A stretch of DNA of 63,967 bases, counting the filler, from Stramenopiles sp. TOSAG23-3 (Eukaryota): the NCBI GenBank assembly GCA_900128585.1. It is 11 parts of 11 records of this genome, joined end to end, with 100 filler letters (N's around TTAATTAATTAA, not from the genome) between each part and the next. Parts side by side here need not be neighbours in the genome. Positions count along the whole stretch, not along the records: positions 58,269 to 63,967 come from LT643452.1; 10 more parts are not named here. One strand, given 5' to 3'. Made by a program: the position numbers and the translations under genes. Below the pieces are notes generated by a model that saw nothing but the letters and a program-made list of their open reading frames with translations, was not told where the DNA came from and ran no database searches. Below, piece by piece: positions 1,101-63,967 of the stretch; position 1 is the first letter of the stretch, and every line of letters starts with the position of its first letter.

Positions 1101-1826
1101 ATGAATATAAACGAATACGAGTACAAAGGTACATCTGCCAACGTGGTCCTAGAAATTGTGGCTGCCATCAATGGAGAGAAAAGTCGGTTTAAATTCTATC
1201 GACAGTACGGCAATGTCTTAATTTACAATCTGGGAAATGAGCGTTGGACGGTGCATGAGGTAACACCAGAGCAATTAGACGCACGAACCAAGTTATGGCC
1301 CATTTTAAGGCGAATGGAAGGAGTTCAAACGGCAGAAACGTACCGTATCATGACACCAATACGTGAGATTCTCACCGACAAGCGTGTCTTGTTGGCAAAG
1401 TATGTCATGTGCAAGAAAACTTTACCAGACGATGGTTCTACCATGTGCGAGCTTCATAAATGGGGAATTTACCCGTTGATGCTTCGTTATTGTTCTGGTA
1501 TGTTACGTGTGGGATTAGAAGTGGAACAGGAGGCAACTTTGAATGAACATCGATATTTCGGAGCTTTGGAGAAATACAATATAACAAGTAGAAAACAGTA
1601 TCGTCTGGCCTGTAGGTACCAAGGATGGTTGGAATGGGCTGAATTGCATACAAATACGATGATCAATATTAAATTTCGTAATGCAAAGACCACCGTAGAA
1701 CGAGCAGGAAATTTTTTGAAGTCGCACTACAAAAATTTTTATACTAAAAACCACTGGAACAACATAGAGAAGAAAGTAAAGCAGTTTGACGGCATGTGTG
1801 ATAAAAATGTAATATTAAAACTTTAA
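1101..1826 (+). CDS. Hypothetical protein (241 aa), virus-like contig
   Basis: Clean ATG-TAA ORF tightly packed between neighbours; no family recognised. Confidence 0.7.
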   Translation: MNINEYEYKGTSANVVLEIVAAINGEKSRFKFYRQYGNVLIYNLGNERWTVHEVTPEQLDARTKLWPILRRMEGVQTAETYRIMTPIREILTDKRVLLAKYVMCKKTLPDDGSTMCELHKWGIYPLMLRYCSGMLRVGLEVEQEATLNEHRYFGALEKYNITSRKQYRLACRYQGWLEWAELHTNTMINIKFRNAKTTVERAGNFLKSHYKNFYTKNHWNNIEKKVKQFDGMCDKNVILKL

Positions 1827-11584: not shown

Positions 11585-11684
11585 NNNNNNNNNNNNNNNN
11601 NNNNNNNNNNNNNNNNNNNNNNNNNNNNTTAATTAATTAANNNNNNNNNNNNNNNNNNNNNNNNNNNNNNNNNNNNNNNNNNNN
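11585..11684. other. Artificial contig spacer
   Basis: N44-TTAATTAATTAA-N44. Confidence 0.99.
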
Positions 11685-34400: not shown

Positions 34401-34926
34401 TCCACAACCGTCGTGTGTCCATTTTCTTTTGCCAGATGCAAAGCCATGTACCAATATTTTTCTACCTTCTTGTCGATACAGCAGTTTTGGTGACCCATAA
34501 ATAACAACTTCACAACCTCCGCGTGTCCTTTTTCTGATGCCAGATGCAAAGCTGTGTACCCATATTCACGTTGCCTCTTGTCGTTTATCGTTAGATTTAC
34601 ACCACAATCTCTATTAAATGTTGTATATCCATCCAGTATAATTTTGACAACCTCCATGTATCCTTTTTCTGATGCCAGATGCAAGGCCGTCCGCCCACAC
34701 TTGTCCCGCATGTTGATATGACAGTTTTGGTGACCCAATAACAAGTTCACAACCTCCGCGCGTCCGTTTTTTGATGCCAGATGCAAAGCTGTGTACCCAT
34801 ATTCACACTTGTCCCGCATGTCATTTATCGTTAGATTTACACCACAATCTCTATTAAATGTTGTATATCCATGCAGTATAATTTTGACAACCTCCATGTA
34901 TCCTTTTTCTGATGCCAGATGCAAGG
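31457..34926 (-). CDS. NLR-like STAND protein: ankyrin repeats - NB-ARC (with inserted SAM) - TPRs - SPRY, 5'-truncated
   Basis: TALHLAS ankyrins; GLGGLGKT (Walker A), WLIIYDNAD (Walker B), VLLTTR, GLPLAL, FSIHRLVQ; TPRs such as HPYIADSMNNLA; SPRY YYEIE...GVGDDCHSWGFDG...GDVIGC...FFLNG. Confidence 0.9.
34441..34926 (-). repeat. High-identity coding tandem repeat (240-bp period) in the ankyrin array
   Basis: 34584-34686 and 34824-34926 are 103 bp with a single mismatch. Confidence 0.9.
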
Positions 34927-37260: not shown

Positions 37261-40200
37261 ATGGCTTCGTTTTTTGTAAAGGTCTTCGAAACGCTTTCTG
37301 CCCCGTCGCAGGAGGACGAGCAACTTCAAAAGCAACGGGTGTACTTACTGAAGGGCCTGAAACAAACGTCGAAACGTGTGCTCTCGAATTCATCGGTCGG
37401 GGAAAACGCTGGTCGAATAAGGTCAACGGACCCGTTTGCAGAGCAACTGTGCAATGATATTTTAGCGTGTCTTCGCCATGGCCTGAAGGGCCGTGGGAAA
37501 GATGGTTTCTGGGGGTTCATCAATGAGTGCTGCAAACGGGTGCTGTCTTCCAGTTCCCAAAATTCAAAGTTGGAACCATTTTTGGATAGCGTGCAGGCCG
37601 TTGGGATGCTCGACTTTGTAAAGACCCCAGAAGGGAAATCGAGAGCATGGGTAAGGCAGGCTTTGAACACCAAGGCAATGGCGGACGCGATCGAAGAAAT
37701 GATCCGGCACCAACCTACCCTGATACTAAGGTACGAGCCCTGGTCGCTCTTGAGGTGCAGTACTGGCAACCGAATACTAGTTTCTATAATAGCGCCTCTC
37801 GCAATATTTGATTTTTGTTTCGATGTTGACATCGCGCTTCTTGACCACCAAGACTTTCCAAGCCTCCCGGAAGAATTAATTATTGCGTCCATGGCTTCCG
37901 CGAAGCCTCCCGGGAGAGCGTCCCGTTCCACTTCGCAAGCGGAACAGGAGTTACAGAATAAACTTTGGGAAAGCAAGCGCGCTGGCGGAAGCCAAGTTCG
38001 AAGGAAGCGGAGTGCGTCCGACGGTGGCGGGGTGACCAATCTGGCGTCGTCTGCGTTTTCTTTCCTCTCTCGCGCTGCTCATACAATAACAAAAGACGCT
38101 TCGTCCGCACTGGACGTAATAATCGATGGGATGAGCAATACGAAACGACTTCGCCAAAAGTGTGGGTTCGAAATGAACCTGTCGTTACTCGTACGCTCGC
38201 AGCGTCACTGCCGCCACGCACTGCTGGAACCAAGGCTCGGGGTCCCGCGGATTGCCGAGCAGTGTTTCAACGCCCTGGAAAGTCAGCTGGATACGAAGGG
38301 CTTGTTCCAAGTTTCACCGCCCGAGGCGGAGGTGTTGGCGCTTAAAGAGGCGTACAGTACGGGAAGAAGTCTACCGGTCGGGCTGTTTTCGGCGCATGCG
38401 ATCGGTGGCCTTCTGATCGCCTTCTTGTCCAGCATCCCGCATTGTCTGGTCCCGCCGCTGCACCGACTGCCGCTGATCGTCTGCGCGACGGAGATCGAAG
38501 AAGTAGAAGCACGCGATCGAAACATAGGCTTTCGGCTGCAAGAGTTGCCTTGGGCGCACCGCCCGCTGTTTCGAAAATTGGTCGAATTTTTTCGCCGGGT
38601 AGTTTCCCCAGAGCACTCCGCCTTGAATGGGACGTCGCCGATGGGCGTTGCGGGCCTCCTGGCTCACATCATGTTCGACATTCACGGTGTCGAAACTATA
38701 GAAACGTTGGACGGCAGTTTGGAAACTACAGATGGGAAAACAGGGGGGCCCCGGACTGTGAAAAAGACGGTTCCAAAAATGTCATCGTCTGAAATTGAAA
38801 AGGCGATCCAAACGGCGCACATAATTCTCACGGGAAGGGATCAAGTCTTGGCGGGGATCAAAGAGAAAATGGCGCAGCACAAGCAGTCGCTAGATGGGAA
38901 AGTTCTGTACCTTCGACAAACGTACGAGGTCCAATTTAAACCATTCAATGCACAGAGCCCGTCCCACGTTAGCCTCTTACGGAAAATATGGGATTTACTG
39001 CTGCACAAAGTTGAAGGCCCAATGCCGAGCCCGTTGCCTCCCTTTTCCCTTCAATCAGGCATGTGGTCCAGGTTTGGGTTTCGTGGCAGCGATCCTACCA
39101 TCGATCTGCGCGGGGGCGGTATTTACGCGCTTCAACAACTCGTTTACCTGTACACCAACTACACAGAGAAAATACTGTTTCTCCTGCGTTGGCACGAGGA
39201 GGTCTCGAACAATAGAGCACTGCACGCGTACCCTATGGTGATAACGTTCGTTCGATGCGCGAGAATCGTGACCGAGGTGACAGGGCTACAGCCCAAGGCT
39301 ACGGGCGCGTCGGCGTCAGACACGTTCTCGCTGAACTCCCTATGCAACGGGCCGTGTTGGAGGCTGTTTGACCACGGTTCGTCGTCGATGGGGGAGCTTT
39401 GCGCGTTTGCATTCTTGCTTCACGACCGTCACTGGAGGAAGCAGGACGCGCATTTCGTGGACTACGACCGTCTTTTGGAGGAAACTAAGCATGAACTGAC
39501 AGGGTTGCTAACGCGCAGGCCCAGCGACACCAAGGGCCTTTGGAAGCTGTGGATCGACGACAACAGCAAAAAAGAGTTTGGAGGTGGTCCTCGCGGTGAA
39601 CTGATAGCGGAAACTGCAAATGCACCATCGATCGCGCCCGCGCCGGCGGTCCAACCGGCCCCTGAAGGCATTGCGCCGAGTAGAAAAGGGAGCAGAGAGT
39701 CGTTGCCGGATTCTCCCGTCAGAAAGCGGGTTCCCACAATGGAACAGGGCCCCGGGTCACCGCTCCTCAGTTCTTCCTTTATACTCCAACCGGACCACGT
39801 GTCCTTTTTAGTCGAAAATGCCCTTCCAATTACCTGCAAAGACTATTCGTGGGTCAGGGCGTTTAGCTTGGGGAGCGATGGCAAATCGTTCACTAATTTT
39901 CAACGGAAAATTAAGTCTCACATGGGGTCCATTCTTGTAATTAAAGATTCGACTGGACGAATTTTTGGCGGGTATGCGTCCGAACCATGGGGTCAAAACC
40001 AGGAGGGATACTATGGAACCGGGGAATGTTTTGTATTCTCGTTGGACCCATCGCGAAAAGCGTACAAATGGACGTCCAAGAATAACTTGTGCATGATGCT
40101 TAACGAGACAGCGATTGCGATGGGCGGGGGCGGGTCGTTCGCTTTTTATTTGGATAGAGATTTGTACCGTGGAAGTTCCGGGCCATGCGAAACATTTGGG

Positions 40201-40347
40201 TGCCCTAATTTAGCCGGGGGTGACGGCAAGTTCTTTTGCGTGGACCTTGAAGTTTGGTATTTCACCAGCGAAACGGTACGCACGTCGCCGTCTATGTCAG
40301 GGGGGGGATCGCCCAGCAGCATGAACCTGGGCTCGCTGGAAATTTAG
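37261..40347 (+). CDS. RUN - RhoGAP-like - ELMO/CED-12 - TLDc multidomain protein
   Basis: RUN: CLRHGLK...FWGFI...GKSRAWVRQALN. RhoGAP: VPRIAEQC...GLFQVS. ELMO: WSRFGFRGSDPTIDLRGGG. TLDc: IFGGYASEPW...YYGTGECFVF...GSSGPCETF...LEVW. Confidence 0.85.
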   Translation: MASFFVKVFETLSAPSQEDEQLQKQRVYLLKGLKQTSKRVLSNSSVGENAGRIRSTDPFAEQLCNDILACLRHGLKGRGKDGFWGFINECCKRVLSSSSQNSKLEPFLDSVQAVGMLDFVKTPEGKSRAWVRQALNTKAMADAIEEMIRHQPTLILRYEPWSLLRCSTGNRILVSIIAPLAIFDFCFDVDIALLDHQDFPSLPEELIIASMASAKPPGRASRSTSQAEQELQNKLWESKRAGGSQVRRKRSASDGGGVTNLASSAFSFLSRAAHTITKDASSALDVIIDGMSNTKRLRQKCGFEMNLSLLVRSQRHCRHALLEPRLGVPRIAEQCFNALESQLDTKGLFQVSPPEAEVLALKEAYSTGRSLPVGLFSAHAIGGLLIAFLSSIPHCLVPPLHRLPLIVCATEIEEVEARDRNIGFRLQELPWAHRPLFRKLVEFFRRVVSPEHSALNGTSPMGVAGLLAHIMFDIHGVETIETLDGSLETTDGKTGGPRTVKKTVPKMSSSEIEKAIQTAHIILTGRDQVLAGIKEKMAQHKQSLDGKVLYLRQTYEVQFKPFNAQSPSHVSLLRKIWDLLLHKVEGPMPSPLPPFSLQSGMWSRFGFRGSDPTIDLRGGGIYALQQLVYLYTNYTEKILFLLRWHEEVSNNRALHAYPMVITFVRCARIVTEVTGLQPKATGASASDTFSLNSLCNGPCWRLFDHGSSSMGELCAFAFLLHDRHWRKQDAHFVDYDRLLEETKHELTGLLTRRPSDTKGLWKLWIDDNSKKEFGGGPRGELIAETANAPSIAPAPAVQPAPEGIAPSRKGSRESLPDSPVRKRVPTMEQGPGSPLLSSSFILQPDHVSFLVENALPITCKDYSWVRAFSLGSDGKSFTNFQRKIKSHMGSILVIKDSTGRIFGGYASEPWGQNQEGYYGTGECFVFSLDPSRKAYKWTSKNNLCMMLNETAIAMGGGGSFAFYLDRDLYRGSSGPCETFGCPNLAGGDGKFFCVDLEVWYFTSETVRTSPSMSGGGSPSSMNLGSLEI

Positions 40348-42652: not shown

Positions 42653-45600
42653 ATGATTGGTGAGTTCCTCTCCACCGTTATTATTATTGCCGCACTGGTT
42701 TTTTTCGCCACCCTTGCGTCGTTTTTCGCCTTGGTCGCTATTCGGAAATATGAGGTAAGTAGGAGGTATGAACGTAAGGTGGAATTGATACGGCGCATCA
42801 GTGTTAGTTCAAGGAAAGCGCGGCGCAATAGCAAGGTTTTATCTACTAAAACACCGTTGTACAGAACACCGTCGATGAACCCATTCCTGAACAAGTCTAA
42901 AGTTCGAGACTTGTCGAAGCGTGCAAAGTTTCGGCGAGCGTTCAAACTCTCCATTGTGATACCCGAAGAGGACAGCGACCAGTCGACTGGCCGGAAAGGC
43001 GCCCACACCAAGGTTGCGTCCCCGGTGCCGCTGTGGTCGCCTTCAACGTTAGAGATAGCCCTGCGCAAGGTTGTGAAGGACAACTTTGCGTCCGACAGTT
43101 TTTTTGCAAAGTCCCCGAAACATGGGTCCCCGAAGGCTAAAGGTGGCAAAGTCTTCTTTCCAGACTCGCCGAAATATTTTATCAAAGGCCCAGACGGGGA
43201 CGCCTGGACCTCCAAGGACATGGACGCCTCCCTCAATGACGGCCTGGGGAGGACCAACGTTGCGACTGGGAGAAACAGCCAGGACAAGGACAACGAGACT
43301 ACATTTTACTCACGCTACCGAACCTTGGGCACGTGGATGCTCGAAACCTGCAGCATGGCAGAGCCGGTGGCAACAAAGTGGTCCACCGCTTCGTTCACAA
43401 TAAAATGGGACCAGACTATTATCTCTGGGGAAACGACTGTGCTGGAATATGACCTGCAATGCAGGGTGAAAAATAAGAACAGCCTGGAATCCCTGGAGGA
43501 AGGATACAACAGCGAAAGCAGCGACGGGGACTTTAAAACAGAAAGTATTTGGGTGGATCCAAGGGGGCACAAGAGCAAGCGCGTGTTCTTCGAGTGCCGG
43601 AACAGTTTCAAGTCCATTCCACGGGCGGCATTTGACGGGGACCTCGATAAGGTGGTGATCCAGGGGTTGAGCGAACACTCCCAAGGCCTTCAATTCCGAG
43701 TTAGAATGAAAGGATTTGCTGGCTGGGGGCCATTCAGTAGGCCAAGCGCCGTGCTGTTCCCACTGCCATCGTCAACGTTTGCCCCTGATACCGGAGCAAT
43801 TACGTCCCGGGGCATCGAAGTGCGCTGGCAGCCTTTGAAAGATCTTAGGTATGGAAAAACCATTCGGTACACGTTGAGTGGCAAGCAGGCCGGGGATGAC
43901 ACTTTCTGTACGATTTTCATCGGGCGGGGAACGGTCTGCGTTGTCCAGGCCCTTGGAAACAAGGCCCTTATCCCAAACACGACATATGTCTTTAAGCTGT
44001 TGATAAAAACAGAGGGCGGAGACGTCAATAGCAAGTTGCTTCCTGTCACGACGTTCGCTGCCGCTCCAGAGCCGCCCATTTCCCCTGTGGTCGGAACGGT
44101 GACGTCTAGCTCGGTCCACCTGTCTTGGTTTCCCCCGTGTGATAATGGGGCGCCCATTATTCGGTACGTGCTGTACGGGCGCAGGCAACGTTCAAATAGG
44201 TTCAAACGACTGTACACCGGCAACGAGTCGGAATACAACATTGGCGGCAGCCATGGTCAAGGGCAGCTGGCCCCTGACACGGTGTACATCTTCAAACTTA
44301 AAGCCACGAATGTCCACGGGGACAGCCCCACCAGTGCGACGGTGAGCGTGACGACCTTGTCCTTGACCGTATCGCCTGAGCGAGGAGCTGGGGACGGTAG
44401 CGGTCCCAATTCTCCCATTTTAAGTTCTCCCGTGGCTTTAGGCCGGCGCAGGTCATCGGCTGGTGGCCCGCAGGGGCGTCGTGATTCATTTATTACCACC
44501 AGCATCCCGACAATAGACTCTGTCAGTCCAGGTGGACAGCAGGTCGCAAGAAGGAACTCCGTCACGTCGCCTACCGTGTCGACAGCCCCCGCGCGGGTAT
44601 CGGAGCTGCCCAACGGGTGGGTAGAGTGCTGGGACCCGCAGCGCGAGAACTGCTACTATTACAATAGCATGACCGGCATCACCCAGTGGATGCACCCGAC
44701 GAAAGGAGACTCGACCGACCCGGAGTTACCGTTTCGAAAGAAACGGTTCAAGCTGCTTTACTCGTTGCGCGAGCGGGACTGGCCCAAAGGCGGGAGAAAG
44801 ATTATAAAGATTACGCTCCGTCGGCAGCACTTGGTCCAGGACTCATTCCAGGCCCTCGAGCGGCTTGGCGTGGAGAAGCTGAAATTGAAGACAAAAATTG
44901 TGTTCGAAGGCGAAGACGGGATCGACTCGGGCGGCCTTACAAAGGATTGGTTCCTCCAATTGTCTCGGGGTTTATTCAACCCTCAGTTCTGTTTGCTGAA
45001 ACAGCACGAATCGAAAGTGTACCACATCGACAGTCGCTCGGGCATCAACGAGGAGCATCTGAAGTATTTTCATTTTTTTGGAAACTTCTTGGCGAAAGCA
45101 ATCTACGACCGGCAGCTTGTTGACGTCCCGTTTTGCAAAATGATCTACAAACACCTGCTTGGCCTCCCCGCGACGCTTGGCGACCTTGCCGATATCGACC
45201 CGGTCTACCACACAAGTCTGAAGTGGATGTTGAACAACGACATTGACGGAATAATCGACGAGACGTTTTCCATCACCGTGGACAATTTTGGGGAACGCAT
45301 TACGGTGGACTTGAAAAAGGGCGGGCGCAACATCGAAGTAACGGACAAGAACAAGGGTAGCTACGTCCAAGCCGTTGTGAATTGGCAGATGGGAGGGGCG
45401 ATGAAGTTACAAATTGACAACCTCAGGAAAGGCTTCTATGAGATCGTCCCGATCCATGAAATTGCCGACTTCACGCCAGACGAGCTAAGTCTGCTGTTGA
45501 ATGGCAAACATGACATTGACGTCAATGAAATGGCAAGCCAGTCCAAGTACACTGGAGGTTACGACAAAAATAGCACAACGATACAGTTCTTCTGGGTAGC

Positions 45601-45850
45601 GGTAAAGTCCTTTTCCAAGGAAGAGAGGGGGAAACTCCTACAATTCGCAACTGGCACAAGCAGGGCACCATTGGATGGTTTTGACCCAGCATTTACTGTC
45701 ACGCGCGCGGAAGGGGTAGATGAGAACGCCCTTCCAACTGCACATACCTGCTTCAATCAACTCGTCCTGCCCGAGTACAAATCAGTTGAAACGCTCATGG
45801 CAAAATTGCGGTATGCTTTTGACAGCAGTGAAGGGTTTATGCTGACTTGA
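42653..45850 (+). CDS. Membrane-anchored FN3 - WW - HECT E3 ubiquitin ligase
   Basis: N-terminal TM; three FN3-like units (FRVRMKGFAGWGPFS, YIFKLKATNVHGDS); WW LPNGWVECWD...YYYNSMTGITQWMHP; HECT FEGEDGIDSGGLTKDWF...LLQFATG...LPTAHTCFNQL. Confidence 0.93.
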   Translation: MIGEFLSTVIIIAALVFFATLASFFALVAIRKYEVSRRYERKVELIRRISVSSRKARRNSKVLSTKTPLYRTPSMNPFLNKSKVRDLSKRAKFRRAFKLSIVIPEEDSDQSTGRKGAHTKVASPVPLWSPSTLEIALRKVVKDNFASDSFFAKSPKHGSPKAKGGKVFFPDSPKYFIKGPDGDAWTSKDMDASLNDGLGRTNVATGRNSQDKDNETTFYSRYRTLGTWMLETCSMAEPVATKWSTASFTIKWDQTIISGETTVLEYDLQCRVKNKNSLESLEEGYNSESSDGDFKTESIWVDPRGHKSKRVFFECRNSFKSIPRAAFDGDLDKVVIQGLSEHSQGLQFRVRMKGFAGWGPFSRPSAVLFPLPSSTFAPDTGAITSRGIEVRWQPLKDLRYGKTIRYTLSGKQAGDDTFCTIFIGRGTVCVVQALGNKALIPNTTYVFKLLIKTEGGDVNSKLLPVTTFAAAPEPPISPVVGTVTSSSVHLSWFPPCDNGAPIIRYVLYGRRQRSNRFKRLYTGNESEYNIGGSHGQGQLAPDTVYIFKLKATNVHGDSPTSATVSVTTLSLTVSPERGAGDGSGPNSPILSSPVALGRRRSSAGGPQGRRDSFITTSIPTIDSVSPGGQQVARRNSVTSPTVSTAPARVSELPNGWVECWDPQRENCYYYNSMTGITQWMHPTKGDSTDPELPFRKKRFKLLYSLRERDWPKGGRKIIKITLRRQHLVQDSFQALERLGVEKLKLKTKIVFEGEDGIDSGGLTKDWFLQLSRGLFNPQFCLLKQHESKVYHIDSRSGINEEHLKYFHFFGNFLAKAIYDRQLVDVPFCKMIYKHLLGLPATLGDLADIDPVYHTSLKWMLNNDIDGIIDETFSITVDNFGERITVDLKKGGRNIEVTDKNKGSYVQAVVNWQMGGAMKLQIDNLRKGFYEIVPIHEIADFTPDELSLLLNGKHDIDVNEMASQSKYTGGYDKNSTTIQFFWVAVKSFSKEERGKLLQFATGTSRAPLDGFDPAFTVTRAEGVDENALPTAHTCFNQLVLPEYKSVETLMAKLRYAFDSSEGFMLT

Positions 45851-52947: not shown

Positions 52948-55900
52948 ATGCCCATAAAAGAGTACAAGTATGGACGGGGAATTGGTAACGACCATGAAAC
53001 TACTAATTCTTCGTCCTCGCTTCGCTCGGCTTCTTCGTCTGCCTCTACCCGCTATGGCTCTCGGCCAAGTGCACCGAGAGGGATAGCAATGTTAGAAAAG
53101 AAAATGGCCATACAAGAAGAATACCAATCCATTGGCCACCGAGTAAAAACAACCCTCGATGATTTTGAGGAATACGACAGTCGGGACATTTTCCACGCAA
53201 TGGAAGAGCAGATGTACCAGGAGGAAAAGAAGAGAAAGTCTAGGATTTATCTTCAGGCTGGAGAAGAAAAGGAAATTGTATACAAACGCATCCCAATAGA
53301 GAAGCGTGAAAAGGCCTTCAAAGCGGCCGTAAAACGCAGCAGGGACAGGCTGAAAAATTTGGAGACCAACCTCTTGGCCGTATGCGCTGGACGGCTTGGT
53401 TTACTAAGTGAAGTCGATGTTTGGTTCGAGGAGAAGGGGGACACCATGGACAAAGATGAGCATGAGTGGAACAAATGGGAAGTAGAAGCTGCAATGGAAA
53501 AGGCGGGGGTCATCAGCGAAGAGACGATGATGCAGCAGTTGGAGGAGATTAAGAACATGGTTAGCCATAAGCAATCGAATGCAGCGCGAAAAATTTTGAA
53601 CCTCCATACGAGCATGATACAAGATATGAAATTCACGGTTTCACGGATAATTCAGCACGCAAAAGATGATCTGCAAGCTGTGGAAGAAGAAAACGAAAAA
53701 TACCAATCCACAGTAGACGACCTGATTCTAGAGTCGAGGGAGTACCAAGAAGAGGTTAAAGATTTGAAAAGCAAATCTGCAGAACTTGCTAAAAATTTGA
53801 TGAAAGTGCAAAAGTCAAACGTTCAAAATAAATCGGACAGGAGCAAGGCCATTGCGGCAAAGAACGTCGCCATCGATGAAGCGCGCCACTTGGAGAAGCA
53901 AAATAAGGCTTTCCGGGATGAGCAAGGAGAGATGATGCAAAAAATCGTGGCGATGGAAGGCAATATAAAGCGTGCCGTGGCTCGCGCTGAAATTGCAGAA
54001 GAAGGCCTCAGCAGTGCAGACTCGATGTTGTCAAACGAACGGAACAAGCTCCAGGCGCTCTCCGCTGCAAGCAACGAGGAAAAGCGCATCAATGATATTC
54101 TTAGAGAAAAATTACGAACGAAGGAGACCGAGCTAATAGACGGGAAGAAACGGTATAGCGACTTGATGAATGCGCTTGACATGCAAAATAGGGCACATGA
54201 GAAGATTGTAGAGGATATTACCATGCAACAGGAGTTCGAAACCAAAGAAAAAACCAACCAAATATTTGAACTGTTTCGGTACAACCAGGCAATATGGCAC
54301 GGCTCCCTCCTTGGACAGTTTCTGTCTTTCGCTGCCATCAGCACACCTACTATGGGGGCAGTCGCTGCAGGCGAAGTCAATTTCGAAAAGTTAGATACGT
54401 TGACACGGGAACAAACTGCAGACATCGTCCATCAAGTTGAGACGCAATTTAAAAACCTTAAGCAAACGCAACGAGATCTTTTCGATGGCACCCTGCCCAT
54501 TCCGGAAAAGGACAGGGTGGAGACTACGGGAATGAATGCAGAGGATCTGGAGTCGCTGAGCAAGTCCAAGCTGCGAGCCGCTCAACTTAAGCAACAAAAC
54601 GTCTCTTTCAAAATGCGACTGGCGGCCGAAAAGGAATTAAACGGAGAGCTACGAAAACGCGTGGGTGAAACTACTTCTGTACTAGAAAAGGAGAGACAGG
54701 AGTGGAGAAGCAACCGGCACGATTACGAGGGAAAATTATTCGCTGCAAATCATCTTGCAACCACCAATAAACAATTAATAGAGGAGCATGAGGGTACCCA
54801 AAAAAGACTGCAAGCTACTATCGATAAACTGACAGAAGCTCTTCAGCACGGGGGCGACGAAGAGTCGCAGTTGCGGTTGCTCCTGCAGCGTTTGAAAGAA
54901 CTAGAAGGTGCTCTGACACGCGCAAATTCTGACAGAGCGAAGCAGGAACAAGAGCTACTGCGCCAGCGGCAAGAGATGAACACCCTGAAGCGGTCTTTGG
55001 ACGAAGCATCTACTACAAAAGAAACAAGTTCAGCCCCGATGATGAAAATCACAAAGCTTTCAACGAGAAATAAGAAGGTTCAAAAGACGGACGATGAGCT
55101 GTTGCGTTTACGGGCAAGGGTAAGCATGTTGACAAATGAAATAGCACACTTGAAAGTAGAGTTGAATGCCCTGTACAAAGAGCATGATATTGAGCCCACG
55201 GTCCGCAGCCTGACGCCTCCAAGGATTCACACCCCTGAGGTAAAACTTGTGGAAGTCATTAAGGTCGTTGAAAAAATCAGAATAATTGATAAAACGGGAA
55301 AACATGACGCTGTCGAAAAAGAATTGCTCTCTCAGCAGACACAGACTGACACTCAAAGATCCGATCCAATCATAAAAGTGCGAGTTGAAAAGTCAAAACC
55401 GAATTATGTTCCAAGTTATCGTGAAATAAAGGTCGTTTCCCAGCCCCAAACCAAAGAGGCTGTATCAGTAGGGACACAGACGGACACAGTCGTCGCACAC
55501 AGGCAAATGGAAGACTTAGAGCTCGTGCTAGTCCGCCGAAGCTCTCCCGACGTTGATGATAAACAGCCAAAATATGTTCAAGAACCGTTTGCGCTCAGGG
55601 TGCCAATTCCTTCCGAGCGGGTCAAACAGAAAAAGGTCGTCCAGGTTCGTTCGCCGAGACGACAGCTATCAAACCAACAGAACGATGTTGTGGTGCACGA
55701 AAATATTAGCGCTCCTCAAGAGACGCCTGGTGTTTTCCCTAGCAAGCCCCCCCCCCCCCGAGGTTATGGTAATCCATTCAAACTCGCACCTAGAGAGTAG
55801 GGAAATCTTACGATTGAAGGAGCTGAACGCTATTTTAGAGCATATTCACAAGAAGCAAGAAGCGGAAGTTGAGCGCTTGAGGACGCAAGTTCAGCACCTT

Positions 55901-57226
55901 ACAGGTCTACTCACTGGAAGTGCCGACGACAGCAGAAGAAGTCATCAAGTGGATACAATGATACAGACCCAAATTGACGAATTTCTTATGATTTTAAATA
56001 GCCAAGCAACCGAATTGTCAAATGCCCACACAGTTATCAAGGAAATGACGAAGGCCATCAAGGCGACATCCGAGAATCACTGGTACCAGCAGCACGAACA
56101 CGAACGCAAAGTGGCAGGGATGAAAATCGCTTACTCCAGGCTTTGGAACGAATACGAACGCCTGAAAAATGCCCCAATCGACCCCAATTTAATAATTAAA
56201 GGTATACCGACGGGCAATGCTGGGTTTGCCCCAACGCAGGCTTTAACTGCTTCGCATGCACCAGTTTTGAAGCCAAAGCAATCTGAATTTAAAGAGCAGA
56301 GATTACAGCGTATTCTTGCTACAGACAGTGCACTTCACAGGCCATTAACCCCAGAGACATTTCCAACCGAAGAATTTTCGGTCGTGTTGCGCATGGAAGA
56401 AAATCGTGCGAGAGCAACTGTGAATAGATCGCACATGGTCAAAAATTCGCCCTTTTCCAGCGGGGACGTGCAAGCAATAGAAGGGTTTCGGCCAGGGAAA
56501 GTATTGAAGGCGTTGCCCACTAACCCTGCCGATCGGAAAACGTTGGCAGATGACCCACTAGCAGATTACCGAATCAATTGTGGCCCGCTGTTGTCTGAAA
56601 ATGCAAAACAGACGGAACCGATCAAGGTTCCGAAGAAAAGAACCGCTTGTTACAGTGCAAAGCGGAGCAAAACGCCAAAAATCCCGAAACCGTTGTGTCG
56701 GGGAAAAATAAATGGGCGCGCCCTCAAAAAACACAACAAATCTGTGGAAGCTCCCGAACAGGTGCTGCCTGAGCGAGACTCTCTTGTTAGTGGACGCCCC
56801 GGGCTGCCATTTCGTCCTTCATCGACTTCTGCCAGACGGTATTACAGAAACAATGCTCGTTTTCTCTTTGAAGGAGACGAAGTGAGGAAGCAGACGTCCG
56901 TATATAGTATCAGCAAGCAAACAGAGCAGGAATTGAAGGAACGCCTCCTCTCTGGGCATGGAGGAAGCGGCCCCGACGCGGTAGAGTCTTGGTGGAAGAT
57001 ATTTCTGCAGGATGAACGCGAGCCCCAGCCAAGTAACATACAGTCATGTTCTTCGGATCTGTTGGAACAGTTTGAACTAACCGCCAAATTTCAGTACGAT
57101 CAAAAGCTAAAGACGAATAGCAGATTCCTGAAGCAGCGCAACGATGAGAAACAAGAAAAGAAGGCTGCGAAAGGAGCCAACCAAAACAAAAGTGCGCGTG
57201 CAATTAATATAATACTACCTTCGTGA
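52948..57226 (+). CDS. Long coiled-coil protein split into two frames at a C13 tract (55747-55759)
   Basis: ORFs 52948-55800 and 55553-57226 join if one C is removed, or via a 31-nt GT-AG intron at 55763-55793. Confidence 0.7.
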
Positions 57227-57956: not shown

Positions 57957-58168
57957 TGCTCTTTCTACGCGTTGCCTAGTCGTCCAAAGTGCAACGCAGG
58001 TTGCTCAGTTGTTTACTATTCTATACGAAACCATAGATTCTTGGTTTCGTGGAACGTTGGGAAAGGACGTCACATAATACCATCATTTCGAAGCCATGAA
58101 TGCAAAAATAGAAGCCTCGAAACTCACAGAGTGCGTGGCCGAGCTAGATGCTCTTCTAAAAGCAAAAA

Positions 58169-58268
58169 NNNNNNNNNNNNNNNNNNNNNNNNNNNNNNNN
58201 NNNNNNNNNNNNTTAATTAATTAANNNNNNNNNNNNNNNNNNNNNNNNNNNNNNNNNNNNNNNNNNNN
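58169..58268. other. Artificial contig spacer
   Basis: N44-TTAATTAATTAA-N44. Confidence 0.99.
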
Positions 58269-58270
58269 GA

Positions 58271-58330
<60 letters not shown>

Positions 58331-58737
58331 AACAAACAAACAAACAACAAACAAACAAAGAAAAAAAGAAAGAAAAAAAGAAAGAAAGAAAAAAGAAAGA
58401 AAGAAAGAAGAAGAAGGAGAAGAAGGAGAAGAAGAAGAAAGAAGAAGAAAGAAGAAGAAGAGGAAGAAGCCTTAGCAGACGACAAGCACCGGTAGAAAAA
58501 CTCTTTCTTCTACTTGGGTACCACAGCATACATTTCTCATCCCCCCCGCGCCCCGTGCTGTCCAAAAGCCAAAAGCGCAGCAGAGAAAGAGGAAGAAGAA
58601 TGATGAATAAAAAATTAAAAGAAGAAGAAGAAGAAAAGAAGAAGAAGAAAAGAAGAAGAGAAGAAAAGAAGAAGAAAAGAAGAAGAAGAAAAGAAGAAGA
58701 GAAGAAAAGAAGAAGAAAAGAAGAAGAAGAGAAGAGA
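58269..58737. repeat. (GAAA)n/(GAA)n microsatellite block with a roughly 110-bp complex insert
   Basis: Purine repeats on both sides of 58470-58582. Confidence 0.9.
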
Positions 58738-58911
58738 ATAATGATCATCATACATCATCACAATTTTTCTTTTTTTATTTTCTACTCGTCGTATCACAAA
58801 ACACTATTAATACCGTACCGACTCGAGAAAGGAACATCAAAAACACACATAAACCCAACGAACGAAAGAAGTCTTTATTTATTCAATGAAAGTTTTTGTC
58901 TATGACAGGCA

Positions 58912-61900
58912 ATGGCAAATTATTCCGTACGCCCGACCCTACACCGCTTTAACGAAAAAATGCCAAAGAATCCGTCCGTGTCTTTTTGCTTTAGAAACTA
59001 CAAAGAGCTTAGCCGAAATAAAAATGGTAGCGACAACCGGCCGAGCAAACCGCCCTCGCTCATGCGTTTAAAGTCGGGGACAGATGGTCATGAAGAAATA
59101 GCCGAGTTTGTCGAGAAAAAATTCGGCAGTGATAAAAGTGTTGTCTTGTATGTCCTGGAAAAAATATCGGAGTCTTTCAAAGCGGGGAATATTACGTATA
59201 AGGAGAAAACAAGGTTGAAAAAACTGCTGCTTAATGACAAAAAGGGACTTTTCACGGTCATGGCAGAAAGTGTTACTTTCGATAAATGGAAAAAATATTG
59301 TGTAATGTGCGACAAAAAAATAGAAAGCAGGTTAAAAGGCATTAAGTGTGAAACGCAGTCGCACTTTACCTGCGCGGCTTGTTTAGACAAATGGGTTGGG
59401 CAGTTTACTTTTGAAAGTCTTACAATAGCGCGTGCGGAAGGGTTTAATTTTCAAGACTTGTTCGTCCGTCGTGGGCACATTATGTGCCCTGCTGCTGCTT
59501 CTGGAAATTGCAATTCAGACCATTATGGCGATCATGAAATATCGATACTCTTGTCGCAAAGCGTTTGTTGTAGGTTTATTACCACCTTGTTGTACGCAAC
59601 AGAATCTAACAAACTTGTACATGATATGGAAGAGCAATTATTAAAAGCCGTAGAAGGTCCCGGAATAAACGATGGGACAGACGAATGCACAAGCAGAGCA
59701 CAAGCGTTGAAAAAAGCAATCCCGAACAGTCGCATGTGCAATCGCTGTTTGCTTGGCCCTCTTGTCAATTCGAATGGCAATACAGAAAAGGAAAACGATA
59801 GTTTCTTTTGTCCGCGTTGTGGGCTTGAAAGCACAAATTTGTCTGATCGATTAGTCTGGGATGGTAGACTGCCGTGTGAGTCCATGGTTTTGAATTCAAA
59901 TTGCAATGGCAGTAGTAAAAGTAACGAGAATGAAGAGGGACCACAATATGGTTCGCTAATTAGGAAAGAAATTAGAAAGGGAAATAAAATAGAGACAGAA
60001 ATATTCCCAATTACGACACAAATGGGAAAAGCTAAGATGATATTGCCTCGTAACGATGGAGTAAATGTCCTGGAGTTGAATTGGTCCCTTGCAAATGGTT
60101 CGAAGGCTTACATGTATACACGAAAACAATTAGCGCACACATTTGAGAAAAAACCGTTGTTGCGTAACGTAGTGAAAAATATAGAACAGTTAGAAAGAGA
60201 CATAAAAGAGCAAAAACTACGCATTGAAAAATTAAAGATTAGTTCGGGCCAATTAAGAGCAGAAGTCTTAAATGGTCGTACAAAAAAAATTAATAGGAAA
60301 CATCTTCAAAAATGTTTTGAAAAAAAGAAATGTTGCGTTGAATTTCTATTAAAGACGCACCGGCCAAAATTTGTAAAACAAAAGGATATGTTGTTGGAAG
60401 AAGCAAAGAAGTTAAATGAAGAAATTGCAGCGCATGCGGAAGAAGTTGAAAAGGAACAGAGTCTTGTATTGCCAATAGTGCAGCAACAGGAAGCACTCAT
60501 TAAAAAAGTAGAGGGAATCCTAACGCCAGTGTCGCTTGAGTTCGACGCTACGTGCGCAGAGTTACAGCGTCATAGGCGCGGTGAGCTAGAAGAGTTTTGC
60601 TTGCTGCGTAGACCCAGTCCACCAATGTTGCTAGTAGCTGAAGCATTAGGCATTTTGTTTGGGTTGAAACCACGTAGGTCAAATGGGCCACGGGTATGGA
60701 GAGAAGTTCAACAAATGATACGAAGAGACCGCTACCGCTTTCTTTCAACTCAACTCAGAGAGTATGACAGAGACAACATCCCAAAAAAAATTATTCGAAA
60801 ATTAGGAAGGATTATTAACGATGAATCTTTTTGTCCAGATGTATTGCGCAGACAACAAGCTTATGCATCAACTCTCTGTCGATGGGTGCGCATTATATAT
60901 AAATGGCATTTTGTGGAAAAAGAATGTCATCCGATAAAACAAGAACTAATACTGCTCCGTGAAAAACTTGACAATGAACGAAATATAGAAATACTAAATC
61001 AACAAAACAAAAGACAGAAGGATATTACAAAAAAATTATCCAAAGTCTCCGATTTAGAGAAATGCCTGAATGCTTTATTGGCTGTTGAAACTGTGATGAA
61101 AGATGAAAGGAGCTTAAAAGAAAGTAAAGGTTGTCTTAAATCAATAGACTCAAGTTTAAGAACGTACGAAAAAACGATGTTAACAGTGTCGTTCTTAAAT
61201 GATTCCAACAGCAAATTAATCACGTATATCCATCGTGGTGACGTTGAAGCAGTAAGAAACCTAATTGAACAAAGCAATTGTGCTATCAATTGTGTCGTTG
61301 GAGGGTCTACCCCTTTGTGCACTGCGATAAAAGGGGGGTTTACCGTTGTATTTGATTACTTAATGCAACAGCCAAATCTTGATATAAACAAATGCTCGTC
61401 GGCTACGGGAACAACTCCGTTACGGCTTGCCGTACACCATAATCGCGTTGAAATGATCGCTCGTCTGCTAATGGAACCGGATATTATCCCATCGCTCTGG
61501 ATTCGGAGCAGATTCGATTTGTACCATGAAGGTTTTCCTATAAAATTCCGGGAAAATGAAGCTATTCTAAACGCAAACTGGGGGAGTGCCCAAGATGTTC
61601 TTTCTAAAGTGAAACAGTTGAGGAAGAAAGGCCCATTTCAGGTCTCAGAAAGAGAAATTGGGCGGGGACCAGGGCCTTGGATTAACAATTTTCTGGGAGC
61701 AGGGTTTACGAAGACATTGTATCTCGCAACAGACAGCGACATATACAGCTATGACGAAAAGGCTTTCGTTGGGCCTCTGTTGCCTAAGAATGCTTTAATT
61801 ACGAGTGCATTTTACGGGAAGGCAATCGATGTCACGGACCATGTCAACGCTATGCAGCAGGGTGATCGGATCACCTGTATTGCTCTGGGTTGTGACCCAT

Positions 61901-63967
61901 TTCCTGGCCAAACAAAGAAATTGTCTGTCATATATCCTACTAATATTTTGCCCCTAAACAATGAAAAGGTTAAGATAACAATGGAACAACATATTGAAGG
62001 AACAGACAGAAACTATGGTCATCAAATGAAGTCTTTGAAGCAGGAGAAGAACAGGCTGAAAATTATGGAGAAACGACTGGAAAATCTTACAACAGAAAGA
62101 AGTAAATTTATTAAAGTGCCATTGACTGGGAAGGCCTGGAGGCGAATAAAGAAGATACAAATCAACACTGATTCAATGTACAAAAGTAAAGCCTGGGAAT
62201 TGGATGGTAAAATGGAAAATCTTCAGTACACGTCTGGTGATGTCGTGGTGTTAAAAACGGTGGAACTGCGTCCGGAATGGCTTGTAGGAGGGATTAATTA
62301 CACACGGCGCGAAACATTACTGAATGAAAAACGTCGTAGAGTTTGTATAGTTCAAAACTTGAATATGAGCGATAACATTGTGGAACTTTTAACTGACGAT
62401 TATCTTCTTCTGGAAAATGTCCCACTGAAGAACATTGCACCCTTTTCAAAACTGGTCGGCGATTGTTCTTGCGTTAAAATATTAACAAGCAACGGTCGTA
62501 CCGGGTATGTGCTTATTGGTGCACGATTTTGCGGGACGGAAAATGCGAATAATGACGACGAAGGAAAATTCGTTATCCCAAGTTCGTTTTGCCCTTCGTA
62601 TTCAAATGAGATACAGGATAGATCTTTGCATTTTTTGGTTTTACAAGTAACAAAATTGTATGAATCAAGAAACATGGAAACGGTAATAGGTACCTTGCAA
62701 CCTGCGGATATAGTTAAACTATCCCCAGAGGATTCAGACTTGAACGACAGAAGGATTCTCGCAAAACCCGACGAAGCGCTTCTGACAGCACTTGTGCTTC
62801 AGCACACCGGTGGATGGCGTGATGAATCCATGCGGTCTTGGTGTAATCTACCAAAGGGCGGAAAGGATGGCGGTGGTCCTCAAGCATGTAATCATGGACT
62901 TGCAATAATTCGAAAGGCACATTGGTCCTGTTGCGGGGTTACTGATCGTTACCACCCATGCAGAAAATTAGGAAAGAATAACAAGCAATTGAAGGTAAAC
63001 GATTTGGTTTTTGCAACGCCACAGTTGTTCAATAAAAGATGCGCAATCAATGATGAAGATTGGAAACCGGGGAAATTATTGAGAAGAAATCAGGACGGAA
63101 GTTTCAAGATCGCTTTTGTAAAGAAAGTAAATGGGAAAACCAGAACACTAATTGTTGATTCTGTTAACAATGTGGTGCCAGATCATGTGTTTTCAAGTTA
63201 CACGCGCAGTATGCCCCTTAGTTTCGACAACATTCGTGTAGCTAAAAGAGTCCTACGTTATTTAACAAGACTAGAATACGGCTTTAAAACACCCGATTCC
63301 TGGCGATTGAGCCTGTGGGCGCGTCAAAACGGTGTATTCACATTCGAGTGGGAGAGCAAAATTTACGCTGCAGATACAAAACGAAAACTTCTATACTTTC
63401 CCAATGGTCATACAATAAAAATTAATAATGGAAAGCTGATTCCAGTTGATATCATTGAAAGCCATAGGGGCATACTGAATGGAACAACGAAAAGAATGTT
63501 CCTTCCTAGAACATGGCAACAGTTTTCTTATCAAGCCGAGACCATTTTAGACATGGTTAATATCCAAAGTGCGCATGTTATGAAAAAAAATGGCGATTAT
63601 CATGATTATTACCGGGGGGGGTTATTGAATGAAACAACATACAAGGAAATGCTGATACAAATGGAAGCAAACGATTTAATTGCGTGCCATCCATTTCCGT
63701 ACCCTGATAATAGGAAGAAGAAAAATGAAGAAAGCATTGTGGCCGTAGATTATGTTTTTATCTTAGGAGAGCTTGTAAATATACAAAAAAACTATTGGGG
63801 AAAAAACTGTGAAAAGGTCGGTAGAGTTATTGGTTTCCATAATGATGGCAGAGTAAAAATACATATCAGAAACAAACGAAACGAAAGAGAAAGCAAGCAG
63901 GAGGAAACATATACCAAAGATGCTAATCAGGAGTACTTGAACAGAGACCAGTTGAGGATATTTTTCT
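58912..63967 (+). CDS. Giant multidomain protein: RING/Zn - coiled coil - dynein MT-binding stalk - ankyrins - SUEL/DUF3395-like - SH3/Tudor-like, 3'-truncated (not in ORF track)
   Basis: Manual translation from ATG 58912 finds no stop in 1685 codons to the window end; motifs are listed in the findings. Confidence 0.85.
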   Translation, partial: MANYSVRPTLHRFNEKMPKNPSVSFCFRNYKELSRNKNGSDNRPSKPPSLMRLKSGTDGHEEIAEFVEKKFGSDKSVVLYVLEKISESFKAGNITYKEKTRLKKLLLNDKKGLFTVMAESVTFDKWKKYCVMCDKKIESRLKGIKCETQSHFTCAACLDKWVGQFTFESLTIARAEGFNFQDLFVRRGHIMCPAAASGNCNSDHYGDHEISILLSQSVCCRFITTLLYATESNKLVHDMEEQLLKAVEGPGINDGTDECTSRAQALKKAIPNSRMCNRCLLGPLVNSNGNTEKENDSFFCPRCGLESTNLSDRLVWDGRLPCESMVLNSNCNGSSKSNENEEGPQYGSLIRKEIRKGNKIETEIFPITTQMGKAKMILPRNDGVNVLELNWSLANGSKAYMYTRKQLAHTFEKKPLLRNVVKNIEQLERDIKEQKLRIEKLKISSGQLRAEVLNGRTKKINRKHLQKCFEKKKCCVEFLLKTHRPKFVKQKDMLLEEAKKLNEEIAAHAEEVEKEQSLVLPIVQQQEALIKKVEGILTPVSLEFDATCAELQRHRRGELEEFCLLRRPSPPMLLVAEALGILFGLKPRRSNGPRVWREVQQMIRRDRYRFLSTQLREYDRDNIPKKIIRKLGRIINDESFCPDVLRRQQAYASTLCRWVRIIYKWHFVEKECHPIKQELILLREKLDNERNIEILNQQNKRQKDITKKLSKVSDLEKCLNALLAVETVMKDERSLKESKGCLKSIDSSLRTYEKTMLTVSFLNDSNSKLITYIHRGDVEAVRNLIEQSNCAINCVVGGSTPLCTAIKGGFTVVFDYLMQQPNLDINKCSSATGTTPLRLAVHHNRVEMIARLLMEPDIIPSLWIRSRFDLYHEGFPIKFRENEAILNANWGSAQDVLSKVKQLRKKGPFQVSEREIGRGPGPWINNFLGAGFTKTLYLATDSDIYSYDEKAFVGPLLPKNALITSAFYGKAIDVTDHVNAMQQGDRITCIALGCDPFPGQTKKLSVIYPTNILPLNNEKVKITMEQHIEGTDRNYGHQMKSLKQEKNRLKIMEKRLENLTTERSKFIKVPLTGKAWRRIKKIQINTDSMYKSKAWELDGKMENLQYTSGDVVVLKTVELRPEWLVGGINYTRRETLLNEKRRRVCIVQNLNMSDNIVELLTDDYLLLENVPLKNIAPFSKLVGDCSCVKILTSNGRTGYVLIGARFCGTENANNDDEGKFVIPSSFCPSYSNEIQDRSLHFLVLQVTKLYESRNMETVIGTLQPADIVKLSPEDSDLNDRRILAKPDEALLTALVLQHTGGWRDESMRSWCNLPKGGKDGGGPQACNHGLAIIRKAHWSCCGVTDRYHPCRKLGKNNKQLKVNDLVFATPQLFNKRCAINDEDWKPGKLLRRNQDGSFKIAFVKKVNGKTRTLIVDSVNNVVPDHVFSSYTRSMPLSFDNIRVAKRVLRYLTRLEYGFKTPDSWRLSLWARQNGVFTFEWESKIYAADTKRKLLYFPNGHTIKINNGKLIPVDIIESHRGILNGTTKRMFLPRTWQQFSYQAETILDMVNIQSAHVMKKNGDYHDYYRGGLLNETTYKEMLIQMEANDLIACHPFPYPDNRKKKNEESIVAVDYVFILGELVNIQKNYWGKNCEKVGRVIGFHNDGRVKIHIRNKRNERESKQEETYTKDANQEYLNRDQLRIFF

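Follow-up and report, generated by a model that had tools for sequence, protein, structure and literature searches.

The dynein stalk and the microtubule-binding domain (MTBD) at its tip are usually regarded as parts of a motor, in which the AAA ring controls microtubule affinity by making the stalk helices slide: the ring shifts the register of one coiled-coil arm of the stalk (CC1) against the other (CC2), and the MTBD is thereby toggled between weak and strong binding. We analyzed a single open reading frame (ORF) in a stretch of DNA of 63,967 nucleotides from Stramenopiles sp. TOSAG23-3 (the whole stretch is referred to below as the window). Its product, P0001, contains a dynein stalk and MTBD that stand alone in a non-dynein multidomain protein, as indicated by sequence, profile, predicted fold and the absence of AAA modules. 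Our preferred reading, to which we give a probability of roughly 0.6, is that P0001 is a non-motor, static, microtubule-anchored scaffold protein encoded by an intact gene of about 1690 codons.

Three groups of described proteins can be compared with P0001. The stalk and MTBD of inner-arm dyneins (DNAH1, 8i3j; dynein-c, 2rr7) likewise form an antiparallel coiled-coil hairpin with a six-helix MTBD. P0001 differs from these dyneins in that no linker, AAA1–6, strut or C-sequence was detected, in that the flap is cut to an 11-residue loop and the net charge is about +13, and in that the base of the hairpin is connected to a zinc-finger part and to ankyrin repeats where dyneins have AAA4 and AAA5. 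The MTBD of DNAH7 is described in PMC6629372, and that paper states that the main change in the MTBD on microtubule binding is a movement of helix H1, that in DNAH7-type inner-arm dyneins the insert between helices H2 and H3, known as the 'flap', makes contact with the neighbouring protofilament, and that fusions of seryl-tRNA synthetase with the MTBD (SRS-MTBD) were engineered to fix the stalk registry. Such a fusion (3err) is the nearest analogue of P0001 in design, with an MTBD on a hairpin, a non-motor base and a fixed registry; the fusions are laboratory constructs with a shortened stalk, whereas P0001 is the product of a natural gene and has a nearly full-length stalk on an unrelated base. 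Finally, E3 ubiquitin ligases of the Mind bomb and RBR types share with P0001 ankyrin repeats, SH3/Tudor-like barrels, zinc modules and a RING-like Cys/His cluster, but P0001 matches no RING, IBR, MIB_HERC2 or ZZ profile and its domain order differs, and these ligases are not known to have an MTBD.

In the accessible part of a survey of dynein classes, aberrant stalks are reported only within heavy chains (PMC5100056), and full-text literature searches found no description of a non-dynein protein with a dynein stalk or MTBD. The preliminary description of the window had called the architecture unrecognised, and this has held, since neither a full-length relative nor a published description was found. 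What appears to be undescribed is the use of the whole element, without a motor, among domains of this kind; the element itself is known.

Identity of the stalk and its departure from dynein

A dynein MTBD had been proposed at positions 60520–60935, and a profile scan and a structure prediction of the hairpin both agree with that proposal. The Pfam family MT (PF12777) was matched by residues 497–710 of P0001 (24.2 bits against a cut-off of 24; profile positions 48–252 of 344). A phmmer search of all PDB chains was headed by the crystal construct of the human DNAH1 stalk and MTBD (8i3j_A, E = 1e-17, residues 493–709), followed by full-length DNAH1 chains, an axonemal heavy chain of T. brucei, the MTBD of Chlamydomonas dynein-c (2rr7), DNAH6 and many others. 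Apart from ankyrin proteins, the best PDB matches in this search were dynein heavy chains with inner-arm types on top, and outer-arm and I1 heavy chains scored much lower.

The AlphaFold model of residues 415–760 (mean pLDDT 76.1; 85–95 over most of model residues 80–300) consists of a long helix, six short helices and a long return helix, that is, a helical hairpin with a six-helix tip, and the pLDDT of the MTBD tip is about 90 except in the flap loop. When this model was compared with the PDB using Foldseek, all listed matches were dynein stalks or MTBDs; the best was 8i3j (E = 1.6e-9, target-normalised TM score 0.60), and the list included the 'entire stalk' structures 5ayh and 3wuq, the SRS-MTBD fusion 3err and in-situ dyneins. 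The fold match is a corroboration and not an independent proof, because the rows of the alignment given to the model were dyneins. Residues from about 493 to 709 are a genuine dynein stalk and MTBD by sequence, profile and predicted fold, and the heavy chains that they most resemble in sequence are the single-headed inner-arm axonemal ones of the DNAH1 type.

The MTBD lies at positions 60604–60936 (residues 565–675; + strand, as for every feature of this ORF), has six short helices with an 11-residue loop at the flap site, and is basic in composition. It is preceded by CC1 at 60154–60603 (residues 415–564), which is confidently modelled from about residue 485: the PDB alignments with DNAH1 begin at residues 480–493, and the model helix spans model residues 48–139, with a pLDDT of 78–93 from model residue ~71. 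CC2 follows at 60937–61191 (residues 676–760); it aligns with dynein CC2, and its model helix covers model residues 236–345, with a pLDDT of 80–95 up to model residue ~310.

To compare the stalk with dyneins column by column, we used an alignment (A4) of residues 415–760 with the stalk regions of seven dynein heavy chains returned by the database searches; the stalk pieces were aligned because a global MAFFT alignment with whole dyneins scattered the query. Twenty-two of the 53 columns that are invariant in the seven dyneins are kept in P0001, including W596, D619, D621, F640, C656, W658, V668, K670 and P674, and the proline motif at the junction of CC1 and the MTBD (P568, P570, P571) is also retained, so that both stalk prolines reported earlier, at the base of CC1 and in CC2 (P674), are present. 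The other 31 invariant columns are changed. The position in H1 after the double proline is Leu in P0001, compared with Lys or Arg in five of the seven dyneins and Gln in two. The insert between H2 and H3 is the 11-residue loop, which still starts with the KP-basic motif of flap-bearing dyneins. The MTBD contains 24 Lys and Arg residues and 11 Asp and Glu residues, compared with 16–20 and 13–16, respectively, in the seven dyneins, and its net charge is about +13, compared with +2 to +4.

The changed columns, the shortened flap and the lost basic residue of H1 would also fit a stalk that has become a relic, a rigid coiled-coil spacer or some other binding surface after losing microtubule binding, and a dynein class with a stalk that lacks the typical microtubule-binding site has been described (PMC5100056). 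We consider such a loss unlikely: the core signature residues of the MTBD are conserved, as are both proline motifs, the model gives the MTBD tip a pLDDT of about 90 outside the flap loop, and the domain is more basic than in dyneins, not less.

The remainder of a dynein heavy chain was then sought. No AAA, linker or dynein heavy-chain family was matched with Pfam at E ≤ 1 in the 1685-residue ORF, and no AAA, linker or other heavy-chain family was matched at E ≤ 1e-5 in the two upstream ORFs, which is in line with the earlier remark that no AAA motifs flank the stalk. In alignment A4, a segment that precedes CC1 in all seven dyneins, and which we take to be the AAA4 lid, is absent from P0001, as is the dynein motif that follows CC2 (GLGGEK.RW). 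Given that no AAA families were found and that the dynein flanks are missing, the borrowed piece is the hairpin alone. P0001 has the stalk and MTBD of a dynein heavy chain but is not one, since the AAA ring that defines such chains was sought and is missing.

Gene limits, contiguity and relatives

The ORF extends from 58912 to 63966 and consists of 1685 codons without a stop, open at the 3΄ end of the window. An in-frame TGA is located at 58903–58905, three codons 5΄ of the first ATG, and therefore the frame has no 5΄ extension without splicing. A protein fragment of 187 amino acids (P0037), 91% identical and with the frame kept, covers the N-terminus of P0001, and comparison of the two suggests that the second Met may be the conserved start. 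With respect to the 3΄ end, a contig from an RNA library (run X19), representing a variant 90–95% alike with an in-frame 3-base insertion near the 3΄ end, continues past position 63966 for five codons and then has TAA. P0001 is probably about 1690 amino acids long, with its end only a few residues outside the window; this end is graded as no more than probable because the last base of the window differs from that of the variant contig. It fits the relatives of the scaffold described below, which end 25–50 residues past the same terminal barrel. The frame had been described as a giant ORF; it is indeed uninterrupted over 1685 codons, but 'giant' was an overstatement, as the variant transcript contig stops five codons past the window end.

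Parts of the window are present in sequencing runs of 14 studies, mostly labelled as marine or seawater metagenomes, and contigs were compared for four runs (X3, X5, X17 and X19). In X5, which is a marine metagenome and does not belong to the study that is the probable source, 26 of 30 bins were covered by contigs of at least 99% identity, with no cover at 59964–60146 and 63624–63967; one of these contigs (61079–61594) crosses the boundary between CC2 and the ankyrin repeats. X17 and X19, metatranscriptomes from two further studies, each gave three contigs inside the ORF, and an X17 contig (60003–60242) crosses from the N-terminal part into the stalk. The contigs of X5 and of both metatranscriptomes match the window at an identity of at least 99%. 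X3 contained 0.97 of the sampled words, yet it yielded a single short record upstream of the ORF and adds nothing on contiguity. The contigs from RNA libraries suggest that the gene is transcribed, although such contigs cannot show transcript ends.

These data bear on the possibility that the ORF is an assembly chimera or a decaying pseudogene. A run of N about 650 bases upstream, taken as a scaffold gap, would be compatible with a joining error, as would one X5 contig that matches the window up to 62228 and then continues with 182 unlike AT-rich bases, and no full-length protein of this kind was found in a collection of 5.8 billion clusters. However, the frame runs through 1685 codons without a stop, the metagenome and RNA-library contigs of X5 and X17 cross domain boundaries at an identity of at least 99%, and no joints along the stretch were reported in the compared runs. 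The 3-base insertion of the related variant near the 3΄ end keeps the frame, and so does P0037 over the N-terminus. A chimera or pseudogene is accordingly a very improbable explanation, and the check on chimeric joining proposed with the preliminary description came out in favor of a continuous gene. At 62228/62229, another X5 contig begins exactly at 62229, and this break may represent a strain variant or an artefact of the assembly graph.

Relatives were sought with residues 860–1685 of P0001 (an 826-residue query) by HMMER over 1.84 billion representatives, and 28 matches were obtained. Eighteen of them (the 15 best as well as P0026, P0031 and P0033) were scanned with Pfam, and no stalk was found among these 18. 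The most informative relative, P0010 (713 amino acids), matches both ends of P0001. Its residues 20–104 align with residues 300–407 of P0001, which comprise the second CxxC knuckle of a zinc-ribbon-like module, the WDGRLP motif and a strand-rich segment (41% identity, E = 6e-18), and its residues 134–680 align with residues 1086–1660 (25% identity, E = 2e-40). Between these blocks, P0010 has about 30 residues, compared with 678 in P0001 (residues 408–1085), namely the stalk and MTBD, the ankyrin repeats, two DUF3395-like units and a short charged helix. Because P0010 aligns with both ends of P0001 and lacks residues 408–1085, the simplest reading of the sequences is that the stalk–ankyrin–DUF3395-like block is an insert in a lineage-specific scaffold family.

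Searches for full-length relatives by word index, at near, longer and shorter lengths in the collection of 5.8 billion clusters, returned, apart from dynein heavy chains, nothing but two near-identical fragments (P0037 and P0009). In the metagenome_contigs collection, 207 pattern matches to an alignment of the C-terminal region (A2) and 76 to P0001 were obtained and none was confirmed, and a search of viral_contigs with the N-terminal part gave no match. No stalk-containing relative that could reveal conservation over time of, or purifying selection on, the stalk cassette was found in these searches. The GC content at third codon positions (GC3) of the stalk block is 0.32, compared with 0.38–0.47 elsewhere in the ORF, and gives no clear sign of a foreign origin.

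Zinc modules, ankyrin repeats and barrels around the stalk

The N-terminal part contains an eight-ligand Cys/His cluster at 59299–59511 (residues 130–200), a candidate for a cross-brace of the RING or PHD type. The ligands are C130, C133, C146, H151, C154, C157, C192 and C200, with the spacing C-x2-C-x12-C-x4-H-x2-C-x2-C-x34-C-x7-C, and the first six are kept in the fragment P0037. The RING consensus is C-x2-C-x(9-39)-C-x(1-3)-H-x(2-3)-C-x2-C-x(4-48)-C-x2-C; the eight ligands follow the RING order, and the C-x4-H and C-x7-C spacings fall outside this consensus. The stretch H-x2-C-x2-C-x3-W and the late C-P...C pair resemble the motifs of RING-HC and RBR RING1 domains. Pfam was run at E ≤ 10 on eight pieces of the protein, and no RING, U-box or IBR family was matched at E ≤ 10 in the piece comprising residues 116–220 or at E ≤ 1 in the whole protein. 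The only N-terminal signals in Pfam were PHD-like and below the cut-offs (E = 0.0078–0.044), the best being zf-HC5HC2H (E = 0.0078; 16.8 bits against a cut-off of 29.1), with zf-HC5HC2H_2 at E = 0.014. Searches of the PDB with the N-terminal part, using phmmer and a profile built from alignment A3, gave chance-level matches only. The AlphaFold model of residues 100–420, made from a three-row alignment, had a mean pLDDT of 33.9 and an unusable fold. In a protein atlas, where shuffled proteins reach a score of 0.8 a third of the time, the nearest entries were hypothetical proteins of giant viruses (0.88), followed by IBR families (0.82–0.84), all under the tool's guide value of 0.9.

The preliminary description had named this cluster a RING and had proposed that the MTBD was co-opted to target a ubiquitin ligase to microtubules or the axoneme. 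The positions of the Cys and His residues and the stand-alone stalk and MTBD are real; membership in the RING family was supported by neither Pfam, PDB sequence and profile searches nor structure prediction, and the ligase depends on the Cys/His spacing. Within our anchored-scaffold reading, the cluster might still be a working RING, or a RING1 of the RBR type, of an E3 ligase that the MTBD directs to microtubules or the axoneme. The cross-brace order of the eight candidate ligands, the RING-HC- or RBR RING1-like stretches and the IBR families among the atlas neighbours that carry a family speak for this idea, and the ankyrin repeats, the SH3/Tudor-like barrels and a lead to MIB_HERC2 (0.79) recall ligases of the Mind bomb type. 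The PHD-like nature of the best Pfam signals, the failure of the RING, IBR and U-box families to match, the two aberrant spacings, the poor N-terminal model, the lack of a PDB match and atlas scores under the guide value, in a range that shuffled proteins approach (0.8 a third of the time), speak against it, and we regard a functional ligase as doubtful. A safe statement is that the cluster is a candidate zinc-binding module of the RING/PHD type.

The PHD-like signals, together with a 53-BP1-type Tudor signal in the relative P0011 (E = 3.5e-5), could instead point to a reader or adaptor, whose PHD-like and Tudor-like modules would bind modified lysines on tubulin, dynein or chromatin proteins while the MTBD tethers these partners to microtubules. 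However, all of these scores are below the Pfam cut-offs or transitive, and the C3HC4-like order of the Cys and His residues fits RING better than PHD; we consider a reader function improbable, and more so than the loss of microtubule binding discussed above.

Downstream of the cluster, at 59737–60141, a zinc-ribbon-like pair of CxxC knuckles (residues 276–303; C276, C279, C300 and C303) is followed by WDGRLP and a predicted beta-strand segment (residues ~304–410), in which the strands are seen only in a low-confidence model. No Pfam family was found for this segment; the second zinc module of the preliminary description (CNRCLLGP...CPRCG...WDGRLP) is therefore real in its Cys positions and without a named family. 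An RBR ligase, which would have an IBR and a catalytic RING2 with an active-site Cys, was also considered as a candidate and rejected, on the grounds that Pfam matched no IBR family, that this second module consists of just two CxxC knuckles and that the IBR leads came from the atlas alone, at 0.82–0.84.

On the other side of the stalk, about three ankyrin repeats occupy 61207–61497 (residues 766–862). Both Pfam Ank_2 (residues 774–854; 35.3 bits, cut-off 27.3) and Ank (22.4 bits, cut-off 21.1) scored high enough to pass, corresponding to ~2.5–3 repeats and agreeing with the three ankyrins noted earlier at 61210–61490, and ankyrin and DARPin chains were among the PDB matches of phmmer. The repeats are followed at 61537–61944 (residues ~876–1011) by two units resembling DUF3395 (DnaJ-like_C11_C) and SUEL lectins. 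These units have no direct Pfam match in P0001 and were assigned through the relative P0018, which matches residues ~910–1011 by HMMER (E = 3.4e-8), aligns pairwise with both units (27–38% identity, E = 7e-8) and itself scores for DnaJ-like_C11_C (PF11875, E = 7e-40) and SUEL_Lectin (PF02140, E = 2e-10); the two SUEL/DUF3395-like units noted earlier are supported by this route. A short charged helical segment at 62014–62136 (residues ~1035–1075), read from the sequence as a coiled-coil candidate, closes the block missing from P0010.

The scaffold segment shared with P0010 then extends over 62167–62781 (residues 1086–1290); it looks SH3-like by eye, has no Pfam match and is covered at residues ~1133–1245 by the fragment P0009. 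A BTK-motif-like zinc finger follows at 62785–62961 (residues 1292–1350), and 21 of the 28 HMMER matches peak here (query residues 411–551 of 826). Its direct score for Pfam BTK (PF00779) is low (E = 0.52; 10.7 bits, cut-off 24), and it is 45% identical (E = 1e-13) to repeats of P0016, a protein that passes the BTK cut-off at 29.9 bits against 24, as does P0013; the zinc motif H..GxWR...HWSCCG proposed earlier is thus supported, as a BTK-like one, through its homologues. A candidate Tudor/SH3-like barrel at 62989–63156 (residues ~1360–1415) was assigned transitively, via P0010 to P0011, in which the 53-BP1_Tudor match lies just upstream of its conserved C-terminal region. P0014 has an SH3 match in Pfam, and several HMMER relatives carry Mind bomb SH3 repeats. 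The SH3/Tudor-like segments of the preliminary description are thus supported only transitively, through P0011 and P0014.

The ORF closes with the C-terminal domain of the scaffold family and a candidate SH3-like barrel at 63352–63876 (residues ~1481–1600 for the domain and ~1612–1655 for the barrel). The C-terminal ~200 residues are common to P0010 (E = 1.1e-32), P0011 (E = 1.7e-28), P0012, P0014 and P0017 (HMMER; alignments A1 and A2), and this part of the ORF gave a weak SH3_15 match (E = 0.06). For the C-terminal domain, a profile search of the PDB with A1 returned nothing below E = 0.24 and Pfam gave no match; its best score in the protein atlas was 0.83. As a whole, the coordinates given in the preliminary description for the Cys/His cluster, the MTBD (residues ~537–675) and the ankyrin repeats (residues ~767–860) proved accurate, and its domain list appears to be largely right, with most assignments being transitive.

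Genomic setting and proposed function

The window contains 21 further ORFs of at least 250 codons (ATG starts) on both strands, and these encode eukaryotic proteins such as a HECT ligase, a MINDY deubiquitinase and a CFAP58-like protein. The source looks like the gene-dense genome of a flagellated eukaryote with long uninterrupted reading frames. Directly upstream of the studied gene, the run of N near 58.2 kb is accompanied by long GAAA/AAG simple repeats (58160–58760), and the six-frame ORFs within these coordinates are low-complexity artefacts. Two long ORFs on the + strand (52948–55800 and 55556–57226) overlap by ~245 bases and have no match in Pfam; a single gene broken by a frameshift or by faulty assembly is one possible explanation. 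Several other ORFs are multidomain: a 1146-residue ORF at 31457–34897 (– strand) combines ankyrin repeats, NB-ARC, DUF7779, TPR and a C-terminal SPRY domain, which is a STAND/NLR-like architecture in a protist; the ORF at 11637–14051 (– strand) fuses a kinesin motor domain to several EF-hand pairs and is a candidate calcium-regulated kinesin; and the ORF at 37261–40347 (+ strand) has RUN, RhoGAP, ELMO and TLDc domains in a single protein. Among the eight window genes measured, GC3 was bimodal, with values of 0.60–0.64 for the multidomain ORFs at 17664–21359 and 37261–40347 and the HECT gene (42653–45850), and of 0.32–0.47 for the studied gene, the NB-ARC gene and a 1304-codon ORF at 1823–5737.

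In our reading of P0001 as a static anchor, the stalk (CC1, MTBD and CC2), the ankyrin repeats and the two DUF3395-like units would have been placed between two parts of a lineage-specific family, one of them N-terminal and of the zinc-finger type, the other a series of small barrels and zinc modules at the C-terminus. Because no AAA ring slides the stalk helices, the hairpin would be held in a single register and would have a single, fixed affinity state, and the excess of basic residues could produce tight, static electrostatic binding to the acidic tubulin surface. With 70–90 helical residues per arm in the model, the hairpin would hold the ends of the scaffold ~10–15 nm above the lattice, where the zinc finger, ankyrin repeats, barrels and BTK-type finger may bind or modify partners. 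The CFAP58-like gene in the window suggests that the organism has a flagellum, and together with the best matches, which are to inner-arm axonemal dyneins, this means that either cytoplasmic or axonemal microtubules could be the target. Binding to microtubules, a single affinity, the distance from the lattice and any catalytic role are properties that we infer.

Several observations count against a static anchor encoded by an intact gene. The margin of the Pfam MT match over its cut-off is 0.2 bits, the fold match depends on the sequence match through the dynein-stalk alignment on which the model was built, and the 31 changed columns and the Leu in H1 are departures from dynein. RNA-library contigs can arise from contaminating DNA, and the X5 contig that diverges after 62228 does not follow the window. 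The N-terminus of P0010 seems to be incomplete, and its gene model may be truncated or mis-spliced, in which case the 'insert' could be a loss or an artefact, and no stalk-containing relative was found in the searches of the protein collections and of metagenome_contigs.

The finding could reach beyond this gene. We consider it possible, at slightly less than even odds, that the stalk and MTBD form a transferable cassette in protists, through which a scaffold of zinc fingers and barrels, perhaps a ubiquitin ligase, came to stand on microtubules at a fixed distance, and that P0001 corresponds in nature to the MTBD fusions engineered for a fixed registry and is the first non-motor protein known with the entire hairpin. 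A natural protein that has the whole hairpin without a ring would indicate that the hairpin can act as an autonomous microtubule-targeting module, and a naturally fixed registry would allow one to ask which affinity state is the default. Should the N-terminal cluster turn out to be a ligase domain, P0001 would represent a new way to aim ubiquitination at microtubules or axonemes.

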